This document shows, piece after piece, positions 2-34,666 of a stretch of DNA of 64,000 nt. The position numbers and the translations under genes are program-made. Positions within the stretch are counted from its first letter, which is position 1. Each line of letters starts with the position of its first letter. The DNA is taken from positions 239,452-303,451 of the forward strand of contig CAWEKE010000001.1 in NCBI GenBank assembly GCA_963809565.1. The letters run 5' to 3'. The notes below the pieces were generated by a model. The model worked only from the letters and a program-made list of their open reading frames with translations, did no database searches and was not told the DNA's origin. This stretch comes from an uncultured Gammaproteobacteria bacterium. GTDB lineage: Bacteria > Pseudomonadota > Gammaproteobacteria > Steroidobacterales > XN24.

Positions 2-304
2 CAGGGTCTGCACAATCACCAGAACGCGTCCTGGTCAGGGATCTTCTGCGTCGATCCCGGTGACAGCCCCGAGCAACGGCCGGACAGCGGCCTGGTGCGC
101 TTCCACGACCCGCGTTTTTGCAGCGCGTTTCATGCCGAAGCCGGAAACATGGGGCTGGACATGCCATACAACCACGGCGGATTCGACGTACATCACCGCG
201 CCGGACGGCTGGTGATGTTCCCCTCGTTCATGATGCACGAAATCTTCCCCTACCAGGGCGAGCGTCCGCGAATCGTCATCGCCTTCAACTGCTCGGTCAA
301 TTAG
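2..304 (+). CDS. TIGR02466-type 2OG-Fe(II) oxygenase-like protein, C-terminal part (5' end lies outside the window)
   Basis: Frame 2 is open from the window edge to TAG 302-304. The translation reads ..QGLHNHQNASWSGIFCVDPG...GRLVMFPSFMMHEIFPYQGERPRIVIAFNCSVN. It shows the same H-x-H...SG and ..vMFPS.l.H.v......R.gI.FN pattern as the complete paralogue at 61384-62067. Confidence 0.7.
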   Translation, partial: QGLHNHQNASWSGIFCVDPGDSPEQRPDSGLVRFHDPRFCSAFHAEAGNMGLDMPYNHGGFDVHHRAGRLVMFPSFMMHEIFPYQGERPRIVIAFNCSVN

Positions 305-1935
305 TGGCAACGCCTCCGGACCCGCGGCGGCTTATCCGTGCGCTGGCAGCCGAGGCCGTCAACGATCCGGCCGCCGCCATGGGCCGCTGTCGGCAGATCC
401 TGCAGCGGGCGCCGGCGAGCCTGCCGGTGCTGTGTATCGCGGCCGGCATCCAGAGACGCAGCGGCAAATTTGCCGAAGCTGCCGAACTGCTGGCGCGCGC
501 CGCAGCGGTCGACGCCGAGGCTTCGCCGGTGTTTGCCGAGCGCGCCGCGCTGGCCATGTCCTGTCAGGACTTCGAACTTGCCGCGCAGAGCCTCCGCGCG
601 CTGTTACAGCAGCATCCCGGGCAATCGGATTCGTGGTTCAACCTGGGCCTGGCGGAAGAGCAGCGCGGACGAGTTCAGGCTGCGATCGAGGCATTTGAAA
701 ACGCACTGAATCTGGCGCCGGACGGGTACCCGGCAGCCGGCGCCAGACTGGCTATGTTACTGGCCACGGTCGGTCGCGACGCCGATGCGCGGCAACGCGT
801 CGATCAGGCTCTGGCGGCAGACCCGGACCAGGTCGAAGCCCGCTACGCGCTGGGCATGCTGTTGCTGGCCGAAGGCAGGACGGAGCAGGCGCTGGCTCAG
901 TTCCGGCAGTGTGTGGCACGCCAGCCGGGGCTGGCCGGCGCATGGCAGCAACTGCTCGAGTGCCGCCGCATAGAAGATCCCGACGATCCCGAGTTGGCCG
1001 CGGCGCGTGCGCTTCTCGACCAGCCTGATGTCAGTCCCGCCGAGCGCGAACAACTGGCGATGGCTGTGGGCAAGGCGCTTGATGACCTGCACGACTACGC
1101 AGCCGCATTCGACTGCTTTCACCAGGCCAAACGTTCCAGGCGCAAGCGCTTGCCGGATTTCGACCGCGAGGCCTGGCGCGCAGCTACCGATGCCCGCATC
1201 GCAGCGCCGGTGCCAGCCTCGCCCTTCGCGCCCGGGGCGGCCGTTCAGCCGCTGTTTATCGTCGGCATGCCCCGCTCCGGCACGACGCTGGTGGATCAGA
1301 TCCTCACCGCGCATCCGCAGGCTGAAGGCGTCGGCGAACTCGCGTTTTTCGACCAGGCGGCAGAGCGGTTCTTTGCTGCGGGCCTGGAGCCCGACGCCGG
1401 GGCCGCGTTGCGAGCGGATTACTTGCGCCTACTGACCGCGACCGGGGCAACGGTGGTCAGTAACAAATACCCGGCGAACTTCCGCAACATGCCCTTGCTG
1501 CGCTGGCTGATGCCGGAAGCGCGCTTTGTGCACCTGCGCCGCAGCGCGCTGGATACCTGCCTGTCTGTCTATCTCCAGGACTTTCCGCTGGGCAACCTGT
1601 ACGCCAACGATCTGGAAGACATCGCTGCCTATTACGGCGACTACCGCAGGCTGATGACGCACTGGGCCGGGCGCAAGGATGATGTGCTGGAACTGACCTA
1701 CGAGGCGCTACTGAACGACCAGGCCGGTGTCACCCGACGATTGCTGGACTTTTGTGGTCTGGACTGGGACCCGGCGTGTCTGGACTTTGCCAGTAACCCG
1801 CGTCCGGTCGGAACGCTGAGCCGCTGGCAGGTGCGGCAGCCTATCTATGCGTCGTCGGTAGGCCGCTGGCGGCACTATGAAGCGCAGCTGGAGCCGCTGA
1901 TCAGAGCCCTGGGGCCCTGGGCGGATTCAGCCTAG
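304..1935 (+). CDS. TPR repeat + TPST-like sulfotransferase fusion (paralogue ST1)
   Basis: N-terminal Ala/Leu-rich TPR-like repeats (e.g. WFNLGLAEEQRGRVQAAIEAFENALNLAP). C-terminal sulfotransferase motifs: FIVGMPRSGTTLVDQILTAHP (5'-PSB loop), RFVHLRRSALDTCLSVYLQDF (3'-PB), GLDWDPACLDF, SRWQVRQPIYASSVGRWRHY. Start taken as GTG 304, which shares 1 nt with the upstream TAG; ATG 379 is an alternative. The track start at 118 would overlap the upstream gene. Confidence 0.85.
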   Translation: MATPPDPRRLIRALAAEAVNDPAAAMGRCRQILQRAPASLPVLCIAAGIQRRSGKFAEAAELLARAAAVDAEASPVFAERAALAMSCQDFELAAQSLRALLQQHPGQSDSWFNLGLAEEQRGRVQAAIEAFENALNLAPDGYPAAGARLAMLLATVGRDADARQRVDQALAADPDQVEARYALGMLLLAEGRTEQALAQFRQCVARQPGLAGAWQQLLECRRIEDPDDPELAAARALLDQPDVSPAEREQLAMAVGKALDDLHDYAAAFDCFHQAKRSRRKRLPDFDREAWRAATDARIAAPVPASPFAPGAAVQPLFIVGMPRSGTTLVDQILTAHPQAEGVGELAFFDQAAERFFAAGLEPDAGAALRADYLRLLTATGATVVSNKYPANFRNMPLLRWLMPEARFVHLRRSALDTCLSVYLQDFPLGNLYANDLEDIAAYYGDYRRLMTHWAGRKDDVLELTYEALLNDQAGVTRRLLDFCGLDWDPACLDFASNPRPVGTLSRWQVRQPIYASSVGRWRHYEAQLEPLIRALGPWADSA

Positions 1936-3849
1936 CTGCTGACCACCGGTTTCCGCCAGCTCGCCCAGCGGGCCTAACCAGTCGGCATAATGGCGCCAGC
2001 GGCCGATGGACCGCTGATGCAGGGGTTCCCTTACCTGGGCGTGACTCGCCGTTGCCGTCACCCGCTGCTGCGTGCTGAACTCCAGACACGCCGGATCCCA
2101 GTCCAGACCGCAGAATTGCAGCAGCTCGAGCAGGACCGGTTGCGGGGCCGTCACCAGACGCTCGTAATCCAGCGCAAATACCGGCGAATAATCTGCACAC
2201 CACTTCAGCATCAGCTGGCGATAGTGCGCCAGATAGCTGCTCAGCCAGTCCAGCCGCGTGGCAAATCCCAGTGCCTGATCCGCGAAATCGGTGAACAGGC
2301 ACGACAAGCCGGTATCGCGCAGGTCGCGACGGCAATGCACGATCCGGGCGTCCGGAAACACGCGGCGGATCAGCGGCAGATACCGGAAGTTCAACGGCAT
2401 CTTGTCGCTGATCAGTCGCGTGCCGGTCCCGGATGCCGGCAGACGACGGCGGTATTCATCGCCGAGCCGGCCAAGCAACGCCGGTCGTTCGTCCTCGCTG
2501 GCGCCGATAACCCGATGCACCAGCTCGCCGAAAAACGGCAACTCTCCCGCGCCGTGCACGCCCGGATGAGCCGCCAGCATTTGCTCCAGCAAGCTGGTGC
2601 CCGACCGCGGCAGGCCGATGATGAACAGCAGATCTGCGCCACCCTGACCAGCCGGCGTCTGTCCGGCCAGACGCTCGATCAAACGCGCCTCCCGGATCTG
2701 GGCGCCGGGGTCGAACGTCGCCGGTGTCAGCGCATTGGCCTGCTGATACCAGTCCCAGGCCTGGGCAAAATCGCCGAGCTCGTCACACACGTCACCGAGG
2801 CTGAAACAGAATGCACGACGACTGGAGCCTTCGGCCGGGATCGCCTCGGTGAGAATCGGCCGGGCTCGGGCAGGATCGCCAAGCCGACGCCACAAGCGAG
2901 CCTTCACCAGTGCCGGACCCGGCCGTTGCCGCGCCTGCGCGTCAAGGGTTTCGAGACTGTCCAGCCCGGCCTGGTATCGGCCTTGCCATTCCAGCAGCTC
3001 CGCTCGCCCCACCAGCGCATCCATGTTCCCTGGCATGAGTTCCAGCGCACGCTCGTATGCGGCTCCGGCCTGCGTGTACTCACCCACCGCCTGCAAGGTC
3101 ATCGCCAGACCGGCCTGCCAGCCGGCATGTTCGGGGTCGGCATCCACCGCTGCGCGCCAGGCGGAGAGGGCTTCGGTGAGCCGTCCCTGCTGTTTGCGCA
3201 GCCCGCCCAGCAGCGCGAGCCCGGCGCCATCAGCCGGGCGTCGCCGGAGCACCTCGGCAAGCGTCTGTTCCGCGGTGGCCAGATCGCCGCATTCGATACT
3301 GGCGCCGGCCAGGTTGGTCAACGTCCCGGGATCATCCGGTCGGTGAGACAAGCTGTGTCTGAAGCAGGCCAGCGCTTCCTCATACCTGCCCTGTTCCATC
3401 CGCAGGATGCCGTATTCGTTCCACGCCGGAGCGTGTCCAGGCGCTATTGCGACCGCTTGCGCGAGGGCCTGTTCAGCGATCTCAAGCCGGCCGGCCGCGT
3501 GCTCCAGCTGGCCCTGATAGAAAGTCGCATCGGCCGTCACCCGCGGGTCGCTCCTTGCTTCCGCGAAACACTCCGCTGCCTCACCGGTTTTGCCCTGTTG
3601 CATCAGCACGCGACCGAGCGTGAGGCACGCCGGGCCGTCCTTCCTTGCCTCCACGCAGCGCCGCGCGAGCCCTTCTGCCTGCTCGAGTTCACCGAGTTCA
3701 GCCGACGCCATCGCGGCCAGCAACAACAGATCCGGCTGGCGCGGATCAGACGCCAGCAAGCGACGATAGACCTCCAGCGCAGCCTCGGGCCGGCCATCGC
3801 GATGCCACTGCCTGGCCGAAGCCAGTTCGTCTCCGGGTTTAGTCGCCAT
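1927..3849 (-). CDS. TPR repeat + TPST-like sulfotransferase fusion (ST2)
   Basis: 640-aa ORF with N-terminal TPRs. Motifs: FIIGLPRSGTSLLEQMLAAHPGVHGAGEL, RIVHCRRDLRDTGLSCLFTDF, GLDWDPACLEF, SHAQVREPLHQRSIGRWRHY. Its ATG shares one nt with the stop codon of ST3 (TGATG at 3847-3851). Confidence 0.9.
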   Translation of the reverse strand: MATKPGDELASARQWHRDGRPEAALEVYRRLLASDPRQPDLLLLAAMASAELGELEQAEGLARRCVEARKDGPACLTLGRVLMQQGKTGEAAECFAEARSDPRVTADATFYQGQLEHAAGRLEIAEQALAQAVAIAPGHAPAWNEYGILRMEQGRYEEALACFRHSLSHRPDDPGTLTNLAGASIECGDLATAEQTLAEVLRRRPADGAGLALLGGLRKQQGRLTEALSAWRAAVDADPEHAGWQAGLAMTLQAVGEYTQAGAAYERALELMPGNMDALVGRAELLEWQGRYQAGLDSLETLDAQARQRPGPALVKARLWRRLGDPARARPILTEAIPAEGSSRRAFCFSLGDVCDELGDFAQAWDWYQQANALTPATFDPGAQIREARLIERLAGQTPAGQGGADLLFIIGLPRSGTSLLEQMLAAHPGVHGAGELPFFGELVHRVIGASEDERPALLGRLGDEYRRRLPASGTGTRLISDKMPLNFRYLPLIRRVFPDARIVHCRRDLRDTGLSCLFTDFADQALGFATRLDWLSSYLAHYRQLMLKWCADYSPVFALDYERLVTAPQPVLLELLQFCGLDWDPACLEFSTQQRVTATASHAQVREPLHQRSIGRWRHYADWLGPLGELAETGGQQLG

Positions 3850-5555
3850 CAGGCATTATCTTCCACCTGCTCAAGCAACTGTGCCAATGGCGCCAGGTGT
3901 TGCGCGTAGTCTTTATGGCGGCCGACCGCTGAAGTGTAGATCGGTCGTTGTACCTGCTCGTAGCTGGCCGTCGCGATAATCGGCTCAGCGACCGCGGCCG
4001 GACCTGCAGTGATCGACGGTGCGTCTGCGACACAGGCCGCATCCCAGTCCAGGCCAATAAAATCCAGCAACGCGCGGACCGTGCTTTCGGGCTCAGCCAC
4101 CAGCGACTCGTAGTTCAGCTCGAACAGGCCCACATCCAGCGTGGCCCGCCAGTGCCTCATCAGGCGCCGATAGTCAGCATAGTACGCAGCAATGTCCGGC
4201 AGCCGCCGGCTCCAGGCCAGAGCGGGGGCGCTGAAGTCCTGGCAAAAACAGGACAGCGCGACATCCATCGGCTCGCGCCGCAGGTGGATGATCCGGGCCT
4301 TGGGAAACAACACCTGGATCAAGCCGAGATGAAGAAAGTTAGCCGGCATCTTGTCAGTCACGCGTAAATGCGACCCGGCGCCAATCGAGGCCAGATAGGA
4401 CCGGGCCTCGTCACGCCACCGGGCTGCCGGGACCCGGCTCGTGATCAGCGCCGGATCCGGCGCCGGCCTCGAGCCGCGCAGACGTCGCTCGATATCGCCG
4501 ATACCGGTCGATTCACCGCCAGCATGGATCGATTGATGACGCGACAATATGCGCTCCACCAGGGATGTGCCCGAGCGCGGCATGCCGACGATGAACACCG
4601 GGGCATCGCTGTCGCTGCCGCGGTTCTGCAAGGAATGCAGGGTATCCCGGGTCCAGGTCTGCCGGATCGCAGCAACCCGAGCCCGATGCCGCTCGCAGTC
4701 GAACCCGCCAGGCAGCGCGGCGTTGGCTCGACAGTAGGCTTCGAATGCGGCGTCGAACTCGCCTGCGTCATGGTGCATATCGCCCCTGGCAAACAGCCAG
4801 CGTGCCCGCTGATGACTGGTCAATGTGTCCGGGGTCAACGACTCCAAAATCGCGCGCGCTGCTTCCGGATGCCCCGTCCGGCGCAACAGACGGGCATAGA
4901 CCAAAGCCATCTCGGGAGTACGGCCCTCGGCGGGCCCGTTTGCCCCGGTTGTCATCAACGGCTCGAGCAGCGCCAGGCCATGACGCGGTTGTCCACGCAC
5001 TTCATATTGCGCGGCCAATGCAGTCAGCGCCTCGACATGCCCGGGAGACAGCGCCAGCACGCTCTCCAGTTCTGCCCTTGATTCATCGAATCGCCCCTGG
5101 ATCTGCCATACGCCGGCCCGGCCAACGCGCGGCTCCACGTTACCGGGGGCCAGCGTCAAAGCGCGTTCGTAGGCATCCAGCGCCCGTTGGTAGGCGCCGG
5201 CAGCATGGCAGACCACGCCCAGCCGATACCACAGCCGGGGTCTCCCCGGCGTCTGCTCCAGCGCTTTCTCCAGTAAACGTATTGCGGCATCGAATTGTCC
5301 GGCAGTCATGGCCAGCGCAGCAGCGGTGTCGATCACGCGAGGATCGCCGGGGGCTCTGGCGCGTGCAGTGTCCAGGTCCGCTTTAGCCGCATCCACGCGC
5401 CCGGCACGCAAGTGCAGTTCTGCGCGCGCGCACAGCGCGGACATCGGCAGTGCGTCAGCGGGCAGCAGGCCCAGATCCTGCTCTGCCTCGCGCAGGCGTC
5501 CCGCGCGCAGATGCGCCATGGCTTGTTCCAACCTGGCGGAATCAGCGCGTTCCAT
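3849..5555 (-). CDS. TPR repeat + TPST-like sulfotransferase fusion (ST3)
   Basis: TPR N-terminus. Motifs: FIVGMPRSGTSLVERILSRHQSIHAGGES, RIIHLRREPMDVALSCFCQDF, GLDWDAACV, SYEQVQRPIYTSAVGRHKDY. Start chosen at ATG 5555 (MERADSARLEQ..), a 14-nt overlap with the ST4 stop; the track start at 5633 is the maximal ORF. Confidence 0.85.
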   Translation of the reverse strand: MERADSARLEQAMAHLRAGRLREAEQDLGLLPADALPMSALCARAELHLRAGRVDAAKADLDTARARAPGDPRVIDTAAALAMTAGQFDAAIRLLEKALEQTPGRPRLWYRLGVVCHAAGAYQRALDAYERALTLAPGNVEPRVGRAGVWQIQGRFDESRAELESVLALSPGHVEALTALAAQYEVRGQPRHGLALLEPLMTTGANGPAEGRTPEMALVYARLLRRTGHPEAARAILESLTPDTLTSHQRARWLFARGDMHHDAGEFDAAFEAYCRANAALPGGFDCERHRARVAAIRQTWTRDTLHSLQNRGSDSDAPVFIVGMPRSGTSLVERILSRHQSIHAGGESTGIGDIERRLRGSRPAPDPALITSRVPAARWRDEARSYLASIGAGSHLRVTDKMPANFLHLGLIQVLFPKARIIHLRREPMDVALSCFCQDFSAPALAWSRRLPDIAAYYADYRRLMRHWRATLDVGLFELNYESLVAEPESTVRALLDFIGLDWDAACVADAPSITAGPAAVAEPIIATASYEQVQRPIYTSAVGRHKDYAQHLAPLAQLLEQVEDNA

Positions 5556-7563
5556 GTTCGTAGCCGGCGGCGTCCAGGGCCTCGGCAAACGGCTCCAGGT
5601 GCTCACGGTAGTGACGCCAGGCGCCGACTTCACGTGAGTTGAGCGGCTGCCGGACCGGCGTATCGGCTGCGCTGGTCGCTACCCCGGGTTGATAGAATCG
5701 CAGGCAGGCCGGATCCCATTCCAGACTCAGAAATTCCACCAGCTGCCGACTGTAAGATTCCGGGCTTGTGACCAGTTCTTCATAGCGCAACTCAAACATC
5801 GCCAGCCCGCTGACATCACGCCAATGCCGCATCAGGCGCCGATACAGCTGGAAGTAGCGCACCATCGACTCGAGCTCGAAGGTAAAAGCCAGGCTGCGAC
5901 CAGCAAAGTTTTTCAGCCAACAGCGCAGGACCAGGTCCAGCGGGTGGCGCAGGCAGTGAATCACATGGGCATCAGGAAACAGCATCTCGATCAGACCCAG
6001 ATGGACAAAATTGAACGGCATCGTGTCGGTGACCCGCGCCACGTCGCCTGCGCGGGCATCAAGGCCTGCGAGATAGCGGCTGGCATGACGCTCGAGCTGC
6101 CGCCGATCAAGGCGCGCAACACCATCCGGCCAACCACCGCTCTCGCGGCCCAGGGCCATGCTGATGTCGCCGATCATGGTCAGCTCGCCGGCGCCGTGCA
6201 CCTGCGGATGGCTGCACAGAATCTGTTCCGCCAGCGACTTGCCGCTACGCGGCATGCCGACGATGAATACCGGCCTCGAACTCGGGGTCCGGGCGCGTGG
6301 TAATGCCGCCATGGCCGGTGCCGAGAATGCCCGACGGCTGGCCTCCACGGCGCCTTTCAATGCGTCCAGGTCGCGCCCCGGCACGCCGGCTGGCAGCGAA
6401 CGTCGACGCCATTCGTTGGCCTCGAGCGCGGTGTCCCATGCCTGCTGATACTCGCCACTCTCGTCCAGCACACGGGCCAGCGAAAAGCGTAACTGCGCCT
6501 GGCCCTCGGCCCCGATATGGGTCGACTCCAGTGCAGTCTCCAGCACCCGCCTGGCCTCCTCCAGCCGCCCCGTGTTGCGCAACAACCGCGCCTGGATCGG
6601 AGCCACCACGGCCGGATCGGGAGCAGGCCCGGTATTCAGCATGGCCAGGGCCTCATCATGGCGGCCGCGGTTATCCAGCCACGCCGCCAGGCCCGATCTC
6701 GCCTGGTCGTGGCCGGGGTTTACTGCCAGCGCGCGACGGAAATACTCGCCAGCCTGCGCGGGTTCACCCTGCGCCTGCAGCAGCTTCGCCAGGTTGGCCA
6801 GCGCATCGGCATCCTGCGGGTCTTTTTCCAGCGCTGTGCGGTAACACTCCTCGGCCTGATCAAACCGGCCCTGCAGCTGCAGCGATGCGCCCAGCCAGGT
6901 CCAGCCGACTGCGTTGACCGGATCCTGCTCCAGAAAGCGGCGCAACGCGCGTTCCGCATCGGAGTAACGGCCCAGCGCGTTGAGCACTCCGCCAAGTTGT
7001 AACCAGCCCGCGGCAAGCTCGGGTCGTTGCCGGGTCAATGTCTGCAGCGAACTCAATGCCTGCCCGGTGTCGCCTCTGCCCATTGCGGCCATGGCCAGAT
7101 TGAAATGCGCGGCCGCCAGCGCGGGATCGAGGTCAAGCGCCTGCTGAAACAGGTCCGCGGCCCGGTCCAGATTCCCCAGATTGCCGATGATCTCCCCGGC
7201 CTGATTATTGATCTGCGCCGTGCCCGGCTCCATGGCTACCGCAGACTCGACCTGCTCGATTGCGGCCGCGGTGTCCCCAAGCGAGGCCAGGCTTCGTGCC
7301 AGACTCAGTCGCGTCGGTGCGGAATCCGGATCCAGCCGAAGCGCTCGGTTTAACGCGTCTCTCGCGGCATCGGCTTGTCCCAAACGCTGTAGCAGCTCTC
7401 CGCTCAAACGCCAGGCGCCGGCTTCCTCCGGCGCGTCGGCAAGCGCTTGTTTACAAAGCTCCAGCGCCTGCGCGAGCTGCCCTTGCCTGGCCAGCGTCAT
7501 CGCCTGCCGGACGGTGCGGTCGATCGCCTGTGGCGGGACCTGCCTGGGCGCATCCGGGCTCAC
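5542..7563 (-). CDS. TPR repeat + TPST-like sulfotransferase fusion (ST4)
   Basis: 673 aa with a long TPR N-terminus. Motifs: FIVGMPRSGKSLAEQILCSHPQVHGAGEL, HVIHCLRHPLDLVLRCWLKNF, SLEWDPACLRF, VRQPLNSREVGAWRHY. GTG start overlaps the ST5 stop (GTGA at 7560-7563). Confidence 0.9.
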   Translation of the reverse strand: MSPDAPRQVPPQAIDRTVRQAMTLARQGQLAQALELCKQALADAPEEAGAWRLSGELLQRLGQADAARDALNRALRLDPDSAPTRLSLARSLASLGDTAAAIEQVESAVAMEPGTAQINNQAGEIIGNLGNLDRAADLFQQALDLDPALAAAHFNLAMAAMGRGDTGQALSSLQTLTRQRPELAAGWLQLGGVLNALGRYSDAERALRRFLEQDPVNAVGWTWLGASLQLQGRFDQAEECYRTALEKDPQDADALANLAKLLQAQGEPAQAGEYFRRALAVNPGHDQARSGLAAWLDNRGRHDEALAMLNTGPAPDPAVVAPIQARLLRNTGRLEEARRVLETALESTHIGAEGQAQLRFSLARVLDESGEYQQAWDTALEANEWRRRSLPAGVPGRDLDALKGAVEASRRAFSAPAMAALPRARTPSSRPVFIVGMPRSGKSLAEQILCSHPQVHGAGELTMIGDISMALGRESGGWPDGVARLDRRQLERHASRYLAGLDARAGDVARVTDTMPFNFVHLGLIEMLFPDAHVIHCLRHPLDLVLRCWLKNFAGRSLAFTFELESMVRYFQLYRRLMRHWRDVSGLAMFELRYEELVTSPESYSRQLVEFLSLEWDPACLRFYQPGVATSAADTPVRQPLNSREVGAWRHYREHLEPFAEALDAAGYEHGTR

Positions 7564-23368: not shown

Positions 23369-23371
23369 AGC

Positions 23372-23839
23372 TCAGCTGTCGGCCACCAGCGGACCTTCGG
23401 TGAGCTCCCAGATTTCTTCCCGCTCTACCAGGCCATAGAGCCCTTCTGCCTGACCGCGCAGGCCGGCCGCCACCTTCTGCCAGTCCACATCATCACCCGG
23501 CGATGCGTCGCCTTTGGAGCCGAGCTGTTCGAGGCGGGCGCTTTGCAGCTGCCATTTCATTACGAAATGACGCGCAGCGTCGCGCGCGGTATCCGCGACT
23601 TCCATATCGACATGATCCGAAGGGATATCTACCCCTGAAATCACCCAGTAGGCGCGGTTCCTGTTTGCCTGAGACCAGGCCTTGCCGATGAACAACTGGT
23701 GCGGCAGTGTCCACACGGCATGGCCGACGACTTCATCCTGGATCAGGTCGCTGTTGCGAACATGTTGCGCCATGTTCTGTAACTGTCCCTTTGCCCATTC
23801 GGCATAGGCCTGCAATTCCTGTTCGTTCCTGAATGCCAT
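23372..23839 (-). CDS. conserved hypothetical cytoplasmic protein (possibly DUF4826-like)
   Basis: 155-aa ORF with coding-like composition and no signal peptide. The family assignment is from memory only and is weak. Confidence 0.55.
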   Translation of the reverse strand: MAFRNEQELQAYAEWAKGQLQNMAQHVRNSDLIQDEVVGHAVWTLPHQLFIGKAWSQANRNRAYWVISGVDIPSDHVDMEVADTARDAARHFVMKWQLQSARLEQLGSKGDASPGDDVDWQKVAAGLRGQAEGLYGLVEREEIWELTEGPLVADS

Positions 23840-25549: not shown

Positions 25550-25690
25550 GAATCTGATTTCCCGTTCCCGGTGTCGGGAACTCCGTCCTCCATTATGGCG
25601 GTTTCGCTCCGCTTACGCAGAATTCATCATCGTGGAAGGATGACCGTGGCGGAATCCGGAACACGCGCTCCCGCAAGACGCGAGAGGGGA

Positions 25691-30384: not shown

Positions 30385-33300
30385 CGCGCAGATTGATAAC
30401 GGGTGTTGTACTGCTGGTGAAGTTCTTCCCGCCGCATCTCTGCGGCATCGTCTCCCAGAGCGCTGCGCGGCAACGGGCCCAGCTGCCCGCCGTCACGGGT
30501 AAACAGATCCATGTCCTTGGCCCAGCCCCGGGCTTCGAGCACGAACCTGCGCGTCCAGTCATGCGCCACTGCATCTGGTGCATTGAACTCAAGGTGCACC
30601 TCTTCACCGGAGCCGATAATCGCTACCGCATCGTCTGCCTGCTCAAGCAACGGTTCCACGGGGCCTGTCCGGGTGTAAAAGCCGTCGAGATAACGGGCGT
30701 CCCAGAACGCATCGCGCACCTGATAATCGTAATCAGGCACGCGCTGGGCTGCCGTAGTTCTTGTCGCAAAGCCGGTAATCGCCAGACGCGCGGCTGTCGG
30801 AGTCATCACTTGATGGACCATCGCCGGCGGCGCGTCTTCCTCGAATACGATACGAATACGATCCCAATACACTTCGAGATTGGTCGACAGGCGCAACGCA
30901 ACTGTCTTTGCTGGCAGGTCGCCCAGCGGCAGGGCCATCTCCCTCGGCATCCCGGCCGGATAGCCGAAGCCGGTGTAGACGCGATGCCAGACGCCATCGA
31001 CGCTCAGCGCATCCAGACTCGGGGCCTGGTAATCAGCGCCAGCCTGCCAGGCGGCAAACACGGTCTGCGAATACGGGTATTCGACCCAGCCATCGGCGAC
31101 CAACACCGGGCGACTGCCGGCCGGATTGATTTCACGGTCAAATTCGAGCAGCAAACGATGTTCCTGTTGCAGGCGGCCGATAAACCGATGATCGACCTCG
31201 CCCACCGGCGCCGCCACACGGTCAGCGGTCCTGACCGTGTCGAGGACGTCCTCACCGCCGGCATTGCTCGCGGATACCGGGCTGAGGCTGCGCTCGGGAC
31301 GGAAAAAGATCGGGCGGCCGGTGACCGCCGGACCGCCTGTGGCCATGCGCTCATCGACGGCCATGTCCCAGCCTGGCGGCAAATCGAACCCATGCAGCCG
31401 CACCACATCGAGATAAGCGCTCTCCTCCATCGGCTCCGCTATCTTCAGCGCGTAAACCCCTTCCTTTGGCACCAGGCTGCCTGCGGGCATCAGAAAATAC
31501 TCCCACGGTCGCGGCTCGGCATACTCTCCCGGCGCAACCAGAAAACCCAAACCTCCGACGCCGAGCACGTCGCTGACGAAGCCGTAATGCGTCCCGTTCC
31601 AGGCAAATATCACCGGACAGCTGGACAGCTGACGCTGGGTCTCGGCGATCCGGTGCAATTCGCCCTGAGCCAGAGACAATTCGGTCTGGAACACGCCGTC
31701 GGACCAGTCTATCGCCACATAGTCAGCGGCAGGCAATCCGGCCAGACCCATCAGCAAGGGCTGCAGACTTTGACCCGGCGCGGAATTGTGATCCAGCGTG
31801 GTGGTCATGGTCCAGCGATCGAGCAGGCGCAGGGACACCCGGGTGCCGATGCCGGAACGATTCGAACGCATGGAGTCGGCCTTGTCTTCCTTGCCGCTGA
31901 AGCTCAGGCCCAGAAACGGCAGGCGCCCGGGCCCCGGCGGCCAGCGTCTCAGGGCTTCTTCGGTCGGCGCTACGATTTCCGGGCCGGCCTGGATATCGGC
32001 ATTCAATATCAGCAGCGGCCCGGTCAGCCCGGCGCTGTCCTGCAATTGCAGCATGCCGCCGGCATGGTGGCGGATCGAAACGCCGGCGCTGCTGGCGATG
32101 ACAAGTTTCAGACTGCCGTCACCGTCAAAATCGGAGACCGCAAGCTGCGGCTTACTGCCGGCAACGGTGTCCAGTGTATCCAGGGACCAGGACCCCGGAC
32201 GCCAGCTCCAGCGCAACAAGCGTCCGTCTTCGTCCACTGCGTAGATCTCGGGGCGGCCATCGCTGTCCAGGTCGGCGATGGCCGCGGCCTGCAGCGATGC
32301 CTGGCGAAAACTGTCCAGCCCGGTCGCCCGGCGATATTCCCAGAGCCGGTCGTTGATCCAGATATCATTGCCGCCGCCTTCGTTCACCACAATCAGGTCG
32401 AGATCCCGGTCCAGGTCCAGATCAGCGGCGAGAAACTGGCGGCCGGCACCAGCACCGGCGATCCCCTGGCTGGCCCCGAGGCGACGAAAACTGCCGTTGC
32501 CGTTGTTGCTGAACAGCTCGTCCGGCCCATCCGCATTGACCACGAATATGTCGAGATCGCCGTCATGATCTGCATCGATCATGCCGCCATCCACACAGTC
32601 TCCGGCATCATCCGTCGCGGTGTCCGCGCCACGCTCGCGCCACTCGCCCCGGTCCGCGCCCAGCCATAGCTGGTTAGGTCCCTTCCGGCACAGATACAGA
32701 TCCAGATCGCCATCGTTGTCGACATCGCCCCACAATGCGGCGGTGGCGTTGCGGATTCCGGCCAGCGGATGATCCGCGAGATCCGCAAAGCGCCCGTCCG
32801 CCTGGCCGATGATCACGCGCGTGCCGACGGTCGTGGCGGCAAAGATGTCGAGGACGGTATCGGCATCGATGTCGGCAGCCGTCAGCGACAAGACCTGGCC
32901 GCTGATGTCGGCTGCGAGCGGCACCGCCTGCGCGAACAGCGGGCCGGGCGGAAGCGTCGCCGGTTCTATCCGCTCGCGACCCACTGCAAGCGCCTCGGCC
33001 TTGGGACCCAGTTTCGTGTATTTGAACTCGGCCAGACGCGCCCGCGGATTGTCCGCAAATCGCTCGTAAACGGCGAGCATGTCCCGGGCCTCCTGCGGCT
33101 GTCCCGTCCGGCGCAGCACCAGGGCAGCACCGTAGTAGGCGCTGCGCAGATACGGATCCAGATCGATGGCGCGACGGTACCAGTCCAGAGCGCCTTCCAT
33201 GTCGCCCTGCTGCAGCAACGCCTGGCCGGAGAAATATGCGGCATAGGCATCCTCCGGATCGCCCGCGGTCACGACATTCAAGTGCTCCAGCGCCGCGGCC

Positions 33301-33671
33301 GTGTCGCCCAGATACAGTCGCAGCAGACCGGTAATGTAATTGGCACGCAGATCATCCGGTTCCGCTGCCAGCACCGTGGCAACGATGTCCAGTGCGCGTT
33401 GTTCATCACCCTCCTGCTGGCGATTCAGCGTAGCGATGGCGAGATTAAGACGCGCATCACGCCAGTCCGGATTTCTTTGCGCAACTTGCTCAAACGTATC
33501 TCGGGCCGCCGCATAGTCGAAATTACCCATCAGCGCGACGCCGCGATTATTGGCTGCGATGTCCGCTGCGCTGATGTCGTCATCAGCCCTTTCGCAACCA
33601 GTGCCTGAGAGCAAACTCAGCAGGACCGGTATCGCCCACAGCGGGCCGGACATTCCTCTTGCTGCGGTCAT
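30381..33671 (-). CDS. large secreted (possibly lipoprotein) TPR + FG-GAP/VCBS + UnbV-like protein with a long uncharacterised C-terminal region
   Basis: Signal peptide with a possible lipobox (LLSLLSGTGC). N-terminal TPRs. FG-GAP loops: GDVDNDGDLDLYLC, IDADHDGDLDIFVV, ADLDLDRDLDLIVV, ADLDSDGRPEIYAV, SDFDGDGSLKLVIA. UnbV-like segment (GIGTRVSLRLLDRWTMTTTLDHNSAPGQS). I recognise no family in the final ~450 aa. Confidence 0.8.
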   Translation of the reverse strand: MTAARGMSGPLWAIPVLLSLLSGTGCERADDDISAADIAANNRGVALMGNFDYAAARDTFEQVAQRNPDWRDARLNLAIATLNRQQEGDEQRALDIVATVLAAEPDDLRANYITGLLRLYLGDTAAALEHLNVVTAGDPEDAYAAYFSGQALLQQGDMEGALDWYRRAIDLDPYLRSAYYGAALVLRRTGQPQEARDMLAVYERFADNPRARLAEFKYTKLGPKAEALAVGRERIEPATLPPGPLFAQAVPLAADISGQVLSLTAADIDADTVLDIFAATTVGTRVIIGQADGRFADLADHPLAGIRNATAALWGDVDNDGDLDLYLCRKGPNQLWLGADRGEWRERGADTATDDAGDCVDGGMIDADHDGDLDIFVVNADGPDELFSNNGNGSFRRLGASQGIAGAGAGRQFLAADLDLDRDLDLIVVNEGGGNDIWINDRLWEYRRATGLDSFRQASLQAAAIADLDSDGRPEIYAVDEDGRLLRWSWRPGSWSLDTLDTVAGSKPQLAVSDFDGDGSLKLVIASSAGVSIRHHAGGMLQLQDSAGLTGPLLILNADIQAGPEIVAPTEEALRRWPPGPGRLPFLGLSFSGKEDKADSMRSNRSGIGTRVSLRLLDRWTMTTTLDHNSAPGQSLQPLLMGLAGLPAADYVAIDWSDGVFQTELSLAQGELHRIAETQRQLSSCPVIFAWNGTHYGFVSDVLGVGGLGFLVAPGEYAEPRPWEYFLMPAGSLVPKEGVYALKIAEPMEESAYLDVVRLHGFDLPPGWDMAVDERMATGGPAVTGRPIFFRPERSLSPVSASNAGGEDVLDTVRTADRVAAPVGEVDHRFIGRLQQEHRLLLEFDREINPAGSRPVLVADGWVEYPYSQTVFAAWQAGADYQAPSLDALSVDGVWHRVYTGFGYPAGMPREMALPLGDLPAKTVALRLSTNLEVYWDRIRIVFEEDAPPAMVHQVMTPTAARLAITGFATRTTAAQRVPDYDYQVRDAFWDARYLDGFYTRTGPVEPLLEQADDAVAIIGSGEEVHLEFNAPDAVAHDWTRRFVLEARGWAKDMDLFTRDGGQLGPLPRSALGDDAAEMRREELHQQYNTRYQSAR

Positions 33672-34666
33672 TTCGCATCTCCGCGCAGCGCTTTCTTGGC
33701 CCGCGCAATACGCTGCTCGAGCGAGGCAATGTCGATCTCGCCGGGATCAGCCGGCGCCAGGCGGCGGGTTTGCAGGTAAGTATAAAGCTCTGAGCGCAAA
33801 TGGGCGCGCATGTCATGACCCCGGCGGCGTTCACGTTCCTGGCGCAGGCGTCCGATGTCTATCGGCGCCACCACGACTTTCTCACCCGGACCGGGCTCGG
33901 CCTGGGCCAGAATGCGCCCGTCATAGTCGACAACCATGCTCGCTCCCGGCCAGCTGAACGGGGGATAGTTGCTCATCGCCGCCCCCTGGTTGGCGGCTAC
34001 GACATAAGCGGTGTTTTCCAGTGCCCGGGTACGATTGATCAGGGTCCACCAGTCCATCGGTTCGCTCGCGCCCCAGGGATCCATGTAGGCCGAGATGCGC
34101 ACCAGGATCTCGGCCCCGCGGAAGCTCAATTCGCGGATGGTCTCCGGGAACAACCAGTCATAACAGGTCGCGACCGCGATTTTACCCAACTCGGTATCGG
34201 CCACCGGAAACGGATCCGGCTGATAGTCCGGGATGTCGTGCGGACTGGCATGCACTTCCCAGGGAATCCACGGATTGACCTTGCGGTATTTGCTCAGCAC
34301 GCCATCGGCTCCGATCAGCACCGTGGTATTGAACACATGCTCGGGATAATCCGGGTCGCTTTCCAGGAACGAACCAGTCTGGATATAGCAGCCGAACTGG
34401 CGCGCGAGCGCTGCGTACCGCTCGGTGAACTCGTTGGGTACAGGCAGCGCCAGCTTGCGACGCAATTCGCCGACACTCTGATAGATCGGCACGGCATGCG
34501 CGAACTCCGGGAATGCCAGCAGTCTGACATCGAAAAACGGCTCGTAGCCGACGACAGTCTGGGCGACCATTTCACACATTCGCTCGACCCGGGAGGAGAT
34601 TTCTTCGCGGGTCTGCGCTGCGGGGAAATCGGTCTGACAGGCTGCAGCGTAAAACAAGTTACTCAT
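33668..34666 (-). CDS. carbon-nitrogen hydrolase (nitrilase superfamily, amidase-like)
   Basis: Glu-Lys-Cys triad contexts: LLAFPEFA, SKYRKVNPW, KIAVATCYDWLFPE. Start chosen at ATG 34666 (MSNLFYAAACQ..). The stop overlaps the start of the downstream gene by 4 nt. Confidence 0.85.
   Translation of the reverse strand: MSNLFYAAACQTDFPAAQTREEISSRVERMCEMVAQTVVGYEPFFDVRLLAFPEFAHAVPIYQSVGELRRKLALPVPNEFTERYAALARQFGCYIQTGSFLESDPDYPEHVFNTTVLIGADGVLSKYRKVNPWIPWEVHASPHDIPDYQPDPFPVADTELGKIAVATCYDWLFPETIRELSFRGAEILVRISAYMDPWGASEPMDWWTLINRTRALENTAYVVAANQGAAMSNYPPFSWPGASMVVDYDGRILAQAEPGPGEKVVVAPIDIGRLRQERERRRGHDMRAHLRSELYTYLQTRRLAPADPGEIDIASLEQRIARAKKALRGDAK

Follow-up and report, generated by a model that had tools for sequence, protein, structure and literature searches.

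TPR-fused sulfotransferases, a prolyl 4-hydroxylase-like oxygenase and CRTAC1-like envelope proteins are encoded together in a cluster conserved within one clade of uncultured Gammaproteobacteria

Introduction

Bacterial homologs of three protein families known from animal matrix maturation, TPST, P4H and CRTAC1, are encoded side by side in a stretch of 64,000 nucleotides from an uncultured gammaproteobacterium (hereafter the window), which raises the question of whether these genes act together and, if so, on what. The initial annotation had suggested, from gene content, that they may build a modified protein matrix or adhesion layer outside the cell or in the periplasm, as a prokaryotic counterpart of matrix maturation in animals; in its specific form, this layer would be sulfated and hydroxylated, with the CRTAC1-like proteins as its matrix component. 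The general idea of operons that hydroxylate and then sulfate secreted proteins is not new: bacterial operons in which a hydroxylase and a sulfotransferase modify co-encoded secreted proteins were predicted in 2010, as forerunners of extracellular matrix maturation (Iyer et al. 2010, PMC2938197).

Results

The genes form a conserved cluster at positions 118-34771 of the window, ending at 34771 and not at 34666. It encodes nine TPR-fused TPST-like sulfotransferases (ST) and a tenth, TPR-less sulfotransferase-fold protein, together with a P4H-like oxygenase. Each of two CRTAC1-family propeller genes is followed by the gene for a periplasmic TPR protein, and other genes specify an amidase, a membrane pentahaem cytochrome and a large lipoprotein of the TPR/FG-GAP type. 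In the list below, E values for ST1-ST9 refer to Sulfotransfer_3.

118..1935, plus: ST1, TPR and TPST-like sulfotransferase, 605 aa (E 2.7e-36, TPR families)
1927..3849, minus: ST2, TPR and sulfotransferase, 640 aa (E 1.3e-33, motifs); last gene of a long minus-strand operon
3849..5633, minus: ST3, TPR and sulfotransferase, 594 aa (E 7.6e-42, motifs)
5542..7563, minus: ST4, TPR and sulfotransferase, 673 aa (E 6.6e-36, motifs)
7560..9548, minus: ST5, TPR and sulfotransferase, 662 aa (E 8.6e-42)
9541..11448, minus: ST6, TPR and sulfotransferase, 635 aa (E 5.3e-33)
11426..13297, minus: ST7, TPR and sulfotransferase, 623 aa (E 1.5e-46)
13318..14970, minus: TPRp1, TPR-only protein with N-terminal signal peptide, 550 aa (TPR families only, hydrophobic N-terminus)
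14967..16757, minus: CRTAC_a, exported CRTAC1-family protein, 596 aa (FG-GAP_3 E 1.5e-53, UnbV_ASPIC E 2e-14)
16817..17887, plus: U391, TPR-less divergent sulfotransferase-fold protein, 356 aa (hhalign, AF2 and Foldseek)
17925..19733, minus: ST8, TPR and sulfotransferase, 602 aa (E 1.8e-37)
19815..20432, minus: P4H-like 2OG/Fe(II) oxygenase, 205 aa (2OG-FeII_Oxy_3 E 3.1e-8, Pfam)
20422..22608, minus: ST9, long TPR and sulfotransferase, 728 aa, called as 709 aa (E 8.7e-35)
22772..23368, plus: U198, small secreted protein with signal peptide and Pro/Thr/Ala-rich linker (hydrophobic N-terminus; syntenic in relatives)
23372..23839, minus: DUF4826 protein without export signal, 155 aa (PF16108 E 2.3e-22); position kept in relatives
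23861..25549, minus: TPRp2, second signal-peptide TPR protein, downstream of CRTAC_b, 562 aa (TPR families only)
25691..27574, minus: CRTAC_b, membrane-anchored CRTAC1-family protein, 627 aa (FG-GAP_3 E 3.4e-28, UnbV_ASPIC E 5.9e-17)
27571..30384, minus: membrane pentahaem c-type cytochrome with C-terminal TPR, 937 aa (five CxxCH motifs)
30381..33671, minus: large lipoprotein-like TPR and FG-GAP protein, 1096 aa (FG-GAP_3 E 5.7e-27, TPR)
33668..34771, minus: carbon-nitrogen hydrolase, amidase/formamidase-like, without export signal, 367 aa (CN_hydrolase E 3e-37)

The three family assignments of the initial annotation (TPST-like, P4H-like and CRTAC1-like) are correct, and its counts of nine TPST-like domains, one P4H-like oxygenase and two CRTAC1-family proteins, both with FG-GAP_3 and UnbV_ASPIC by Pfam, were reproduced. 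It had overlooked the sulfotransferase-fold protein at 16817-17887(+), the two signal-peptide TPR partners, the pentahaem cytochrome-TPR protein, the DUF4826 protein and the CN-hydrolase. It had also described a larger FG-GAP/UnbV protein, which was confirmed in part, for FG-GAP_3 (E 6e-27) clearly and for UnbV only weakly: the UnbV-like segment of the 1096-aa protein is weak, with a domain E value of 1e-4 by a home-made HMM only, and is absent from the Pfam output at 1e-5, and its C-terminal 407 aa gave no Pfam match.

In all nine TPR-sulfotransferases, of which ST1 lies on the plus strand, convergent with ST2, and the other eight on the minus strand, Pfam placed Sulfotransfer_3 (PF13469) C-terminal to the TPR arrays at E values of 1e-33 to 1e-46. 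By sequence, the only solved-structure relatives of the isolated domain were TPST1, TPST2 and tick TPST (E 7.5e-7 to 1e-3), followed among PDB matches by two polyketide/olefin synthase sulfotransferase domains, including that of CurM; TPSTs were the best PDB matches of the ST7 domain. Three features are invariant in all nine domains: the P-loop PR(S/A)G(T/K)(S/T), the R...D motif for the 3'-phosphate and a Glu that aligns with the catalytic base of TPST. For instance, ST1, whose 605 aa correspond to the longest ORF and for which a later true start is possible, conserves the P-loop GMPRSGTT and the catalytic Glu, and the most divergent paralog, ST6, has PRAGKS and 24-36% identity to the other ST domains. 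The TPR regions, which resemble those of OGT (ST7, for example), have diverged more than the catalytic domains (median identity 29.5% vs 41.8%). Every paralog has a 1:1 ortholog in the nearest relative, L006 (67-85%; 73% for the reciprocal-best ortholog of ST2), and ST7, ST9, ST8 and ST1 are reciprocal best matches in 7-10 of 13 related loci (10 each for ST7 and ST9). The best reading of these comparisons is that the nine paralogs are anciently diverged, individually conserved and probably non-redundant. For solo ST relatives in other taxa, the only recurrent neighbours were the PAPS synthesis genes cysNC and cysD.

U391, which has 356 aa according to gene finders and whose longest ORF begins at 16712, had no Pfam match at 1e-3, but it aligned to the ST profile with hhalign (probability 57%, E 1e-4), and many of its homologs carry PF13469. 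The Foldseek top 50 for its AF2 model (pLDDT 93.3) were all sulfotransferases or sulfotransferase-fold enzymes, led by the CurM sulfotransferase, TPST2 and TPST1. Its variant P-loop, FHIGHCGSTL, is invariant, and the protein is kept in the core module of relatives.

The P4H-like enzyme is, by sequence and predicted fold, a peptidyl-prolyl hydroxylase. Its best PDB sequence matches were all prolyl 4-hydroxylases, and the Foldseek top 50 for its AF2 model (pLDDT 88.8) were all peptidyl-prolyl hydroxylases, the best being a viral collagen P4H (E 2e-11, TM 0.68/0.77). Across 50 homologs, its HxD...H...K residues (H117, D119, H172 and K182) do not vary. Its gene is translationally coupled to the sulfotransferases, as it starts 11 nt before ST9 ends; in relatives the P4H gene always lies directly downstream of ST9, and the ST(709)-P4H overlap recurs. 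Furthermore, hydroxylase and sulfotransferase were found fused in single polypeptides (TPR+2OG-FeII_Oxy_5+ST and Asp_Arg_Hydrox+Sulfotransfer_3).

As for the envelope proteins, CRTAC_a has a signal peptide, an FG-GAP propeller and UnbV_ASPIC; its sole PDB sequence match was cartilage acidic protein 1 (9etn, E 2e-21), and its homologs are named 'CRTAC1 family protein' in source annotations. CRTAC_b has an N-terminal TM segment and groups in the tree separately, with the cytochrome-linked copies of relatives. The propeller repeats of the CRTAC1 type are of the Ca-binding DxDxDG kind, and well over 100 columns are invariant across 25 relatives of 59-87% identity, an unusual degree of conservation that in our view is more suggestive of an enzyme or receptor than of a matrix filler. 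CRTAC_b overlaps the pentahaem cytochrome gene by 4 nt; the cytochrome matches Cytochrome_C554 (30.2 bits, cut-off 20.8) and, weakly, a cytochrome c552 in the PDB, and L001, L002 and L084 likewise have its gene upstream of CRTAC_b. The CN-hydrolase, whose formamidase and aliphatic amidase matches were below the NCBIfam cut-offs, is the first gene of this operon, which continues with the FG-GAP, cytochrome and CRTAC_b genes through 4-nt overlaps. U198 has no Pfam family above threshold, and homologs of it were found in L001-L003, L008, L010, L017, L019, L020 and L089.

CRTAC_a heads a single run of overlapping or nearly touching ORFs, in which it is translationally coupled to TPRp1 (4-nt overlap) and followed by the six sulfotransferases ST7 to ST2; ST5 and ST6, for example, overlap by 8 nt (start and stop, respectively). 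Among the cluster proteins scanned, hydrophobic N-termini were found only in the CRTAC, TPR-only, U198, cytochrome and FG-GAP proteins. No export signals were found in the sulfotransferases and the P4H-like enzyme, which are therefore apparently cytoplasmic, and since the propellers do have such signals, any modification would have to precede export. No site stood out as a likely modification target: of the proteins scanned for Tyr in an acidic context, CRTAC_a had two such sites, whereas CRTAC_b and the TPR partners had none. The cluster contains no collagen-like repeat and has no room for a precursor-peptide gene.

The expectation that the families co-occur beyond this genome was borne out in part, as the same genes are co-localised in at least 12 other assemblies, all within one clade. 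The arrangement recurs in L001, L002, L003, L006, L010, L011, L017, L019, L067, L082, L084, L086 and L089, with linked orthologs as divergent as 52% identity for P4H, 59% for CRTAC1 and about 45-50% for ST. The genes remain together through rearrangements, down to a minimal five-gene form, P4H-ST8-U391-CRTAC-TPR, in L082, a 2.9-Mb gammaproteobacterial genome, whose only TPR-ST in this module is the reciprocal best match of ST8 (64%). Nine paralogs within 23 kb and synteny kept in at least 12 independent assemblies argue that the cluster is not due to chance. Outside the clade, profiling of CRTAC1 against sulfotransferase genes was negative: a TPR-ST was near CRTAC1 in 1 of 80 CRTAC1-relative loci (1 of the 34 informative ones, which are metagenome loci of at least 12 kb), and CRTAC1 was near a TPR-ST in 7 of 76 TPR-ST loci from other species. 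All 34 of these long loci contain a TPR-protein match, and of 55 evaluable loci, 31 have a TPR ORF immediately after the CRTAC1 relative on the same strand. What usually accompanies CRTAC1 is thus a TPR protein and neither a hydroxylase nor a sulfotransferase, and sulfotransferase coupling is not a general requirement of CRTAC1 proteins. The tree shows the linked CRTAC1 genes to be monophyletic and the association therefore to have a single origin, one evolutionary event followed by retention, and phylogenetic inertia may be the cause of the co-occurrence.

Discussion

The region is best read as a composite of two parts, an enzyme battery without export signals and a set of envelope proteins, kept together in one clade of uncultured Gammaproteobacteria. 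We tentatively propose, with a probability of roughly 40%, that the battery carries out TPR-guided protein hydroxylation and sulfation in the cytoplasm and has become coupled to the envelope proteins in this clade only. The TPR superhelix of each enzyme would recruit a particular protein or peptide segment, for which OGT, AspH and the peptide-binding domain of collagen P4H serve as models; the P4H-like enzyme would hydroxylate this segment, and the ST domains would then move sulfate from PAPS onto Tyr or the newly made hydroxyl. All of these steps would take place in the cytoplasm, which provides PAPS, 2-oxoglutarate and Fe(II). We infer that proteins, rather than other molecules, are the substrates and that hydroxylation comes first; the most likely targets in the clade would be co-transcribed envelope-destined proteins modified before export, with the CRTAC1-like propeller, its TPR partner and the small secreted protein as candidates. 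On this reading, the CRTAC1-TPR pair and the amidase-cytochrome-CRTAC1 operon are autonomous modules that do their work in most other bacteria with no sulfotransferases, and the coupling is therefore an addition particular to this clade. A Sec substrate that is sulfated or hydroxylated before its export would, to our knowledge, be without precedent. RaxST is needed to sulfate the RaxX precursor, and the peptidase-transporter RaxB then processes and secretes RaxX (PMC4646787, 10.1101/442517). In our reading, this sulfation probably comes before export.

Alternatively, the neighbouring modules may be functionally independent, which we regard as plausible although we lean against it. The battery would then modify targets encoded elsewhere, the CRTAC1-TPR pair and the amidase-cytochrome-CRTAC1 operon would serve an unrelated periplasmic function, such as redox or nitrogen-compound chemistry or ligand binding, and adjacency would be inherited clade synteny, in keeping with the monophyly of the linked CRTAC1 genes. 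CRTAC1-TPR pairs without any ST occur in L083, L085 and 33 of the 34 long metagenome loci; one metagenome locus, L118, has the amidase, FG-GAP giant, cytochrome, CRTAC and TPR genes without ST; and TPR-ST arrays of 4-8 genes exist without CRTAC1, e.g. in Thiogranum, Burkholderiales and Chromatiaceae MAGs. In other bacteria, the neighbours of CRTAC1-family genes also include haem-propeller hydrazine-synthase homologs (PMC12758564). However, independence does not readily account for the run of overlapping ORFs that CRTAC_a and TPRp1 share with six sulfotransferases, for a togetherness that survives rearrangement, or for a proximity that outlasts the divergence of P4H and ST.

We consider it unlikely that the sulfotransferases have a non-protein substrate, for instance a polysaccharide, glycolipid, lipid A or small metabolite. 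In that case the TPRs would serve assembly or scaffolding, and the propeller and TPR proteins of the periplasm would handle the product, e.g. a sulfated envelope polymer. Sulfotransfer_3 also holds glycan, polysaccharide and small-molecule (metabolite) sulfotransferases, and the substrate class cannot be read from sequence; moreover, the best structural match of U391 is the polyketide sulfotransferase CurM, and a Sulfotransfer_1/lipid-A acyltransferase block lies in the same window. Nevertheless, glycosyltransferase, Wzx/Wzy/Wza, ABC exporter, NRPS and PKS genes were not found within 118-34771, the solved structures closest to the nine ST domains are those of protein-tyrosine sulfotransferases, the coupled oxygenase is of the peptidyl-prolyl hydroxylase fold, and a catalytic domain fused to TPRs is a typical feature of enzymes that, like OGT, modify proteins. 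The matrix proposal itself is very doubtful: its three families were all confirmed, their linkage is kept within a clade and the operons predicted in 2010 offer a conceptual precedent, but repetitive, collagen-like or adhesin-type proteins were not found in the cluster, a secretion system for surface display is absent, the conservation of the CRTAC1 relatives looks more enzyme- or receptor-like, the association is missing in nearly all other CRTAC1-bearing bacteria, and membrane-anchored CRTAC_b shares its operon with an amidase and a multihaem cytochrome, an arrangement that suggests chemistry in the periplasm and not a matrix.

Separate from the cluster, the block at 38-44 kb of the window comprises two Sulfotransfer_1 genes and genes for a 2OG oxygenase, an ELM1-like protein and a lipid-A acyltransferase.

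Organization of the cluster and its most probable role

We propose that the cluster at 118-34771 encodes a cytoplasmic, TPR-guided battery for protein hydroxylation and sulfation. In one clade, the genes of this battery are transcribed together with those of envelope-destined proteins, which would most probably be its targets before their export. This reading is tentative, and we assign it a probability of about 0.4. The P4H-like enzyme would hydroxylate a protein first and the sulfotransferases would sulfate it afterwards; the substrates would be proteins, with CRTAC_a, TPRp1 or U198 as candidate targets, and these co-transcribed, envelope-destined proteins would be modified in the cytoplasm prior to export. 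The cluster is coding almost without gaps, lies on the minus strand for the most part, and is located in a window with a G+C content of about 63%. Its ORFs overlap or nearly abut, which delimits three likely minus-strand transcription units.

Genes and likely transcription units of the cluster
ST1-ST9 (among them ST1, 118-1935, plus; ST7, 11426-13297, minus; ST8, 17925-19733, minus; ST9, 20422-22608, minus): nine proteins of 594-728 aa, N-terminal TPR array and C-terminal Sulfotransfer_3, Pfam E 1e-33 to 1e-46
14967-16757, minus: CRTAC_a, 596 aa, FG-GAP_3 + UnbV_ASPIC
25691-27574, minus: CRTAC_b, 627 aa, FG-GAP_3 + UnbV_ASPIC
13318-14970, minus: TPRp1, TPR only, signal peptide
23861-25549, minus: TPRp2, TPR only, signal peptide
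19815-20432, minus: P4H-like protein, 205 aa, 2OG-FeII_Oxy_3
16817-17887, plus: U391, 356 aa, without Pfam match
22772-23368, plus: U198, small secreted protein
In unit 3, minus: cytochrome protein, 937 aa, N-terminal membrane segments, five CxxCH motifs, C-terminal TPR
30381-33671, minus: FG-GAP giant, 1096 aa, lipoprotein-like, TPR + FG-GAP
In unit 3, minus: CN-hydrolase (CNhyd) and DUF4826 protein
16757 down to 1927, minus: likely unit 1, CRTAC_a - TPRp1 - ST7 - ST6 - ST5 - ST4 - ST3 - ST2
22608 to 17925, minus: likely unit 2, ST9 - P4H - ST8, with an 11-nt overlap of ST9 and P4H
34771 to 23372, minus: likely unit 3, CNhyd - FG-GAP giant - cytochrome - CRTAC_b - TPRp2 - DUF4826, with 4-nt overlaps at the first three junctions

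A hydrophobic N-terminal segment is present in CRTAC_a, CRTAC_b, TPRp1, TPRp2, U198, the cytochrome and the FG-GAP giant, whereas such a segment was looked for and was absent in all of ST1-ST9, U391, the P4H-like protein, the DUF4826 protein and the amidase. The enzymes thus seem to reside in the cytoplasm, which contains PAPS, 2OG and Fe(II), and the non-enzymatic proteins seem to be exported.

A six-frame scan of the window yielded no collagen-like G-X-Y runs, no PAPS synthetase, collagen-like or tail-collar gene was found in the window, and the cluster has no room for a precursor-peptide gene, its biggest intergenic gap being 163 bp. When acidic-context tyrosines were scanned in all locus proteins and compared with the other proteins of the window, CRTAC_a had two strict sites, whereas CRTAC_b, the TPR partners and U198 had none. 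The absence of a recognisable target motif and of a collagen-like or precursor gene counts against the action of the battery on envelope proteins. To our knowledge, there is also no precedent for modifying Sec substrates before export, which likewise counts against it. NCBIfam gave only sub-threshold, generic TPR matches for the TPR proteins and no match for the CRTAC, P4H and U391 proteins.

Conservation of the cluster and the case for independent modules

Synteny was searched with P4H orthologs of 52-91% identity as seeds, then with CRTAC_a homologs, a genome scan with a sulfotransferase (ST) profile and a metagenome scan; the ST profile for the genome scan came from an alignment of four paralogs, since all nine are too divergent for one. 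The counts that follow rest on six-frame HMM matches or on the gene calls of the sequence collection; greedy ORF calling misplaced some genes of high-GC loci. The P4H seeds recovered the cluster neighbourhood in loci L001, L002, L003 and L086 and in two short contigs (by the collection's gene calls), with the representative order cytochrome-CRTAC-CRTAC-TPR-DUF4826-U198-ST(709)-P4H-ST-U391-CRTAC-TPR-ST-ST, and the CRTAC_a seeds recovered L084, at 59% identity and with the layout of the window. L082 (CP070833.1, a 2.9-Mb gammaproteobacterial genome) contains a minimal P4H - TPR-ST - U391-like - CRTAC - TPR version, whose lone TPR-ST is orthologous to ST8. Scanning genomes with the ST profile added L006, L010, L011, L017, L019 and L067, and the metagenome scan added L089.

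The initial annotation had asked whether CRTAC1 genes co-occur with sulfotransferase and P4H genes, and the answer is that they do so within the clade but not in general. Among 76 TPR-ST loci from distinct genomes, which include Alphaproteobacteria, Planctomycetota, Burkholderiales, Chromatiales and Desulfobacterota, a CRTAC1 gene was present in the flanks of seven, and all seven are MAGs labelled Gammaproteobacteria or "Proteobacteria"; arrays of 4-8 TPR-STs without CRTAC1 exist. Conversely, a TPR-ST or U391 accompanied the CRTAC_a relative (48-73% identity) in one of 80 metagenome loci, that is, in 1 of the 34 that are at least 12 kb long. All 34 of the latter contained a TPR-protein match, and a TPR ORF lay directly downstream of the CRTAC relative on the same strand in 31 of 55 evaluable loci. 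CRTAC-TPR pairs are also found in unrelated contexts (L083, L085). Furthermore, a soil-metagenome contig (L118:3389-15335) carries an amidase, an FG-GAP giant, a multihaem cytochrome, two CRTAC1-like genes and a TPR gene without a sulfotransferase, indicating that the amidase-cytochrome-CRTAC1 operon is an autonomous module. As a rule, CRTAC1-type proteins do not need the enzymes of the locus.

In a neighbour-joining tree of 109 CRTAC sequences, all ST-linked CRTAC_a proteins fell into one clade, sister to the ST-less ones, and the cytochrome-linked CRTAC_b proteins formed a second such clade. As the ST-linked proteins form a single clade, the association arose once and was kept through considerable divergence and several rearrangements. 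It also means that differences in Tyr or Pro sites between the ST-linked and ST-less sets would be confounded by phylogeny.

The clade restriction and the single origin count against a battery acting on envelope proteins, and the possibility that the modules are functionally separate and are adjacent only through inherited synteny is a serious one, if still somewhat doubtful. Each module is autonomous elsewhere, and in other bacteria CRTAC1-family genes are associated with haem-propeller hydrazine-synthase homologs (PMC12758564). If the modules are indeed independent, the CRTAC1-TPR pair and the amidase-cytochrome-CRTAC1 operon would still be defined as widespread autonomous units.

The TPR-sulfotransferases

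The nine proteins scored 115-160 bits against Sulfotransfer_3 (PF13469), for which the cut-off is 27. When the isolated ST domain of ST7 was compared with solved structures, only sulfotransferases were matched, led by tick TPST (E 7.5e-7), TPST1 (6e-6) and TPST2 (7.5e-4) and followed by two polyketide/olefin synthase sulfotransferase domains, including that of CurM. All nine share a PRSGT(S/T)-type 5'-phosphosulfate-binding loop and a 3'-phosphate-binding R...D motif; G9, P11, R12, G14, E33, R114 and D118 are invariant in 9 of 9 domains, and the invariant Glu aligns with the GEE of TPST1/2, the catalytic base of TPST. A TPST-like sulfotransferase identity is thus assigned to all nine, with tyrosine sulfation itself being putative. 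Animal TPST1 and TPST2 are type II Golgi membrane proteins that are active in the secretory lumen. Among solved structures they come closest to the ST domains of the locus, with which they have the loop, the catalytic Glu and the 3'-phosphate-binding motif in common, but sequence identity is low (E about 1e-6) and the locus proteins are fused to TPRs and lack a signal or anchor sequence: in ST1-ST9 no type II membrane anchor was found, and a TPR region of 340-470 aa stands in its place. For the N-terminal half of a TPR-ST, the TPR region of O-GlcNAc transferase (OGT) scored best among the natural proteins in the PDB. OGT and SPINDLY likewise combine an N-terminal TPR superhelix with a C-terminal protein-modifying transferase that depends on a nucleotide or nucleotide sugar; however, their catalytic fold and chemistry are unlike those of the TPR-STs, so that the likeness is architectural only.

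Pairwise identity among the nine ST domains is 24-48%, and the TPR halves have diverged further (median identity 29.5%, vs 41.8% for the ST domains), indicating old paralogs rather than a recent amplification. Reciprocal best matches identified a 1:1 ortholog, at 67-85% identity, for each of the nine in L006, an uncultured gammaproteobacterial MAG that is the nearest genome, and ST7, ST9, ST8 and ST1 were each traceable by the same method in 7-10 of 13 related loci. This argues for non-redundant roles. An extended version of our proposal, in which each TPR-guided enzyme would be specific for a site or substrate and the clade's envelope-destined proteins (with the CRTAC1-like propeller and the TPR partner as candidates) would undergo cytoplasmic hydroxylation followed by O-sulfation, is quite improbable.

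The family is very large. In a search of 1.84 billion representatives, the ST profile matched 17,477 clusters (50% identity) at E <=1e-30 and 33,159 at <=1e-10, and TPR-STs were found in several phyla, among them Proteobacteria and Planctomycetota. Fusions of two or more TPR-STs are frequent among these clusters. Many of the matches combine two TPR-ST units in about 1250 aa, and giant multi-ST proteins were also seen (P0361-P0364), for example one of 2492 aa with four ST domains and one of 2819 aa with six matched stretches. Among 130 proteins encoded next to solo TPR-STs of distant taxa, the only recurrent neighbours were cysNC (5 loci) and cysD (4 loci), which supports PAPS dependence; these neighbourhoods are otherwise heterogeneous and gave no general association with a 2OG oxygenase, a TonB receptor or CRTAC1. 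Our literature searches found no paper characterising any TPR-sulfotransferase.

The P4H-like oxygenase, U391 and their coupling to sulfotransferases

All PDB sequence matches of the P4H-like protein are prolyl 4-hydroxylases (B. anthracis, human C-P4H alpha-2 and Chlamydomonas). Across 50 homologs, H117, D119, H172 and K182 do not vary, and the best 50 Foldseek matches to the AF2 model (pLDDT 88.8) are all peptidyl-prolyl hydroxylases, with the PBCV-1 collagen P4H at the top (E 2e-11, TM 0.68/0.77); the EF-Tu-hydroxylating PPHD and PHD2 score nearly as high as the collagen-type enzymes. The protein is thus predicted to have a DSBH fold with an HxD...H Fe(II) triad and a 2OG-binding Lys, and prolyl hydroxylation is its putative activity. 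It shares fold and HxD...H...K site with the collagen-type and bacterial P4Hs (PBCV-1 vCPH, Chlamydomonas P4H, B. anthracis P4H and human C-P4H), which are its best matches in both sequence and structure, but unlike the collagen-type enzymes it consists of a 205-aa catalytic core without a peptide-substrate-binding domain and without a PDI partner. Substrate recognition may instead be supplied by the products of the TPR-ST genes that overlap the P4H gene.

Oxygenase and sulfotransferase domains are joined in single proteins of related loci. For instance, L084:1-1634 encodes one 982-aa protein made up of TPR, 2OG-FeII_Oxy_5 and ST, and the contig of P0115 encodes a 609-aa Asp_Arg_Hydrox + Sulfotransfer_3 protein beside a TPR + Asp_Arg_Hydrox protein and a P4H-like gene. 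The array of L003 also contains a TPR + Asp_Arg_Hydrox protein. Such natural fusions are Rosetta-stone evidence for hydroxylation and sulfation on one substrate, and they argue for a two-step chemistry. It is unlikely that the sulfotransferases of the locus act on something other than a protein, in view of the TPST and P4H affinities of the enzymes and of the absence of glycan, lipid or NRPS/PKS machinery from the cluster.

U391, which has no TPR region, resembles the ST profile remotely (hhalign E 1e-4), and PF13469 is found in many of its homologs. The best 50 Foldseek matches to its AF2 model (pLDDT 93.3) are all sulfotransferases or of sulfotransferase fold, led by the CurM ST, TPST2 and TPST1, and its variant P-loop, FHIGHCGSTL, is invariant. 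U391 is therefore, as judged from the predicted model, the tenth sulfotransferase fold of the cluster. In L088, a U391-like protein is accompanied by both a 2OG oxygenase and a TPR-ST. In the cultured alphaproteobacterium Sphingorhabdus arenilitoris (JBHSDH010000013.1, L087:9338-11041), a U391-like gene is closely paired with a 2OG-FeII_Oxy_3 gene directly downstream of rpsF-rpsR-rplI, a position that hints at a possible connection with ribosomal proteins, and this pair could serve as a tractable model. Orthology of its oxygenase with the P4H of the window was considered and rejected (BLASTP E 0.013), so that the pairing is analogous and not orthologous.

As a separate observation, L004:6146-13023 contains seven 2OG oxygenase genes around a P4H-like homolog of 41% identity, several of them Sel1- or TPR-fused. 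This cluster adjoins a TonB-dependent receptor, is without sulfotransferases, and recalls the tandem-dioxygenase arrays of Iyer et al. 2010 (PMC2938197).

The CRTAC1-like proteins and their partners

The sole PDB sequence match of CRTAC_a is cartilage acidic protein 1 (9etn, E 2e-21), and its homologs are labelled "CRTAC1 family protein" by their sources. In both CRTAC_a and CRTAC_b, FG-GAP_3 and UnbV_ASPIC are above the Pfam cut-off, and an N-terminal signal-like or anchor segment is indicated by hydropathy only. The FG-GAP propeller, UnbV_ASPIC and the signal peptide are features of the CRTAC1/ASPIC family. The locus proteins differ from animal CRTAC1 in that each has a periplasmic TPR protein as its partner and one of the two copies also has a multihaem cytochrome; no EGF family, such as the C-terminal Ca-binding domain of animal CRTAC1, was found by Pfam in the proteins of the locus. 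The family was already known to have bacterial members ("from cyanobacteria to man"; Redruello et al. 2010, as cited in PMC3123361), and our literature searches found no functional study of bacterial CRTAC1. The labels TPST-, P4H- and CRTAC1-like, which the initial annotation had given from inspection, were thus borne out by Pfam, PDB sequence matches, catalytic residues and Foldseek. Its inventory of nine STs, one P4H and two CRTAC1 proteins holds and is slightly extended by U391, but the UnbV domain that it placed in the larger FG-GAP protein (30381-33671) amounts to a weak UnbV-like segment.

Among 25 CRTAC_a relatives of 59-87% identity, well over 100 columns are invariant, including H67, E79, C237, C247 and H360 in the motifs HFNGMSGE and SARDYCSPLVY. 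These residues may have a ligand or active-site role rather than a purely structural one, and in our view this strong conservation makes the family look more like an enzyme or receptor than structural filler. From the three families together, the initial annotation had drawn the hypothesis of a modified protein matrix or adhesion layer. The linkage behind that interpretation is real, but it is limited to a clade and its concept was anticipated in 2010. As a special case of the hydroxylation and sulfation battery, a matrix or adhesion layer is very improbable, given the enzyme- or receptor-like conservation, the absence of any locus feature specific for a matrix, and the fact that one CRTAC copy (CRTAC_b) is membrane-anchored and in an operon with the pentahaem cytochrome and the amidase.

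The C-termini of TPRp1 and TPRp2 share a similar motif, R.AWP.D..VFRP and RQAWSPDAEVFKP, and the signal region of TPRp1 contains SARRLRQ, which is faintly Tat-like.

Comparison with known sulfation systems

The closest precedent for the locus is computational. Iyer, Abhiman, de Souza and Aravind (2010, NAR 38:5261, PMC2938197) described bacterial neighbourhoods of beta-hydroxylase-type 2OG oxygenases and sulfotransferases, in which phytanoyl-CoA-hydroxylase/methyltransferase fusions and PAPS synthetases are also found, with collagen-like or tail-collar proteins as candidate substrates; they predicted that co-encoded secreted proteins are hydroxylated and that the new hydroxyl is then sulfated, and proposed such systems as forerunners of eukaryotic ECM modification. 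Here too, a prolyl/aspartyl-type 2OG/Fe(II) hydroxylase is linked or fused to a P-loop sulfotransferase, through the ST9/P4H overlap in the window and through the fusions in relatives. [quoted passage not shown] A further difference is that the STs of the locus are TPR-fused, form nine conserved paralogs and are linked to CRTAC1-like propellers. The locus can thus be regarded as a TPR-fused, nine-paralog, CRTAC1-linked variant of the hydroxylase and sulfotransferase systems predicted in 2010.

The only experimentally supported bacterial tyrosine (or protein) sulfation system found in our literature searches is RaxST/RaxX. RaxST of Xanthomonas is a TPST-like, PAPS-dependent sulfotransferase needed for sulfation of the later-exported peptide RaxX; it lacks a TPR domain, and its substrate is a 60-residue precursor encoded adjacent to it and exported by the dedicated peptidase-transporter RaxB. 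The locus resembles this system in its bacterial TPST-like enzymes, for which PAPS dependence is likewise predicted, but it has no precursor gene, and Pfam detected no ABC transporter or peptidase domain, and nothing of the RaxB type, in 118-34771.

Although the organism is uncultured, the locus offers an experimental handle on a very large uncharacterised enzyme family, in the form of a minimal five-gene module with candidate substrates in the operon. If pre-export hydroxylation and sulfation took place, it would represent a new bacterial protein-modification pathway, possibly including sulfated hydroxyproline or another enzymatically introduced hydroxyl, a first function for the TPR-sulfotransferase family, and a bacterial analogue of animal matrix-protein maturation. 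With protein substrates confirmed, bacterial protein sulfation and hydroxylation would become a field of study, and the 2010 proposal of a bacterial origin of ECM-type modification systems would be put to the test.

Other features of the window

A second, separate sulfation-type block is located at 38058-43978, which may be involved in a sulfated or hydroxylated glycolipid or LPS.

Genes of the second block
38058-38969: 303-aa ORF, no assigned family
39010-39963: Sulfotransfer_1 protein
39994-40800: 2OG-FeII_Oxy_3 oxygenase
40805-41902: ELM1-like protein
41965-42972: Sulfotransfer_1 protein
42986-43978: lipid-A biosynthesis acyltransferase

Between the two blocks, 34831-35568 encodes a 245-aa protein without a significant Pfam family; a basic tail, extremely rich in Lys and Ala (KKAAKKKAAKKK...) and similar to that of histone H1, makes up its C-terminal half. 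The segment 35661-37880, directly after the cluster, encodes a 739-aa patatin-like phospholipase with a signal peptide, fused to an Omp85-type beta-barrel. A stand-alone 2OG-FeII_Oxy_5 oxygenase is encoded at 61384-62067, and the same domain is fused to the TPR-ST in L084. A DUF4397 lipoprotein is encoded at 55240-56598, and DUF4397 genes also flank the pair of U391-like protein and TPR-ST in L088.
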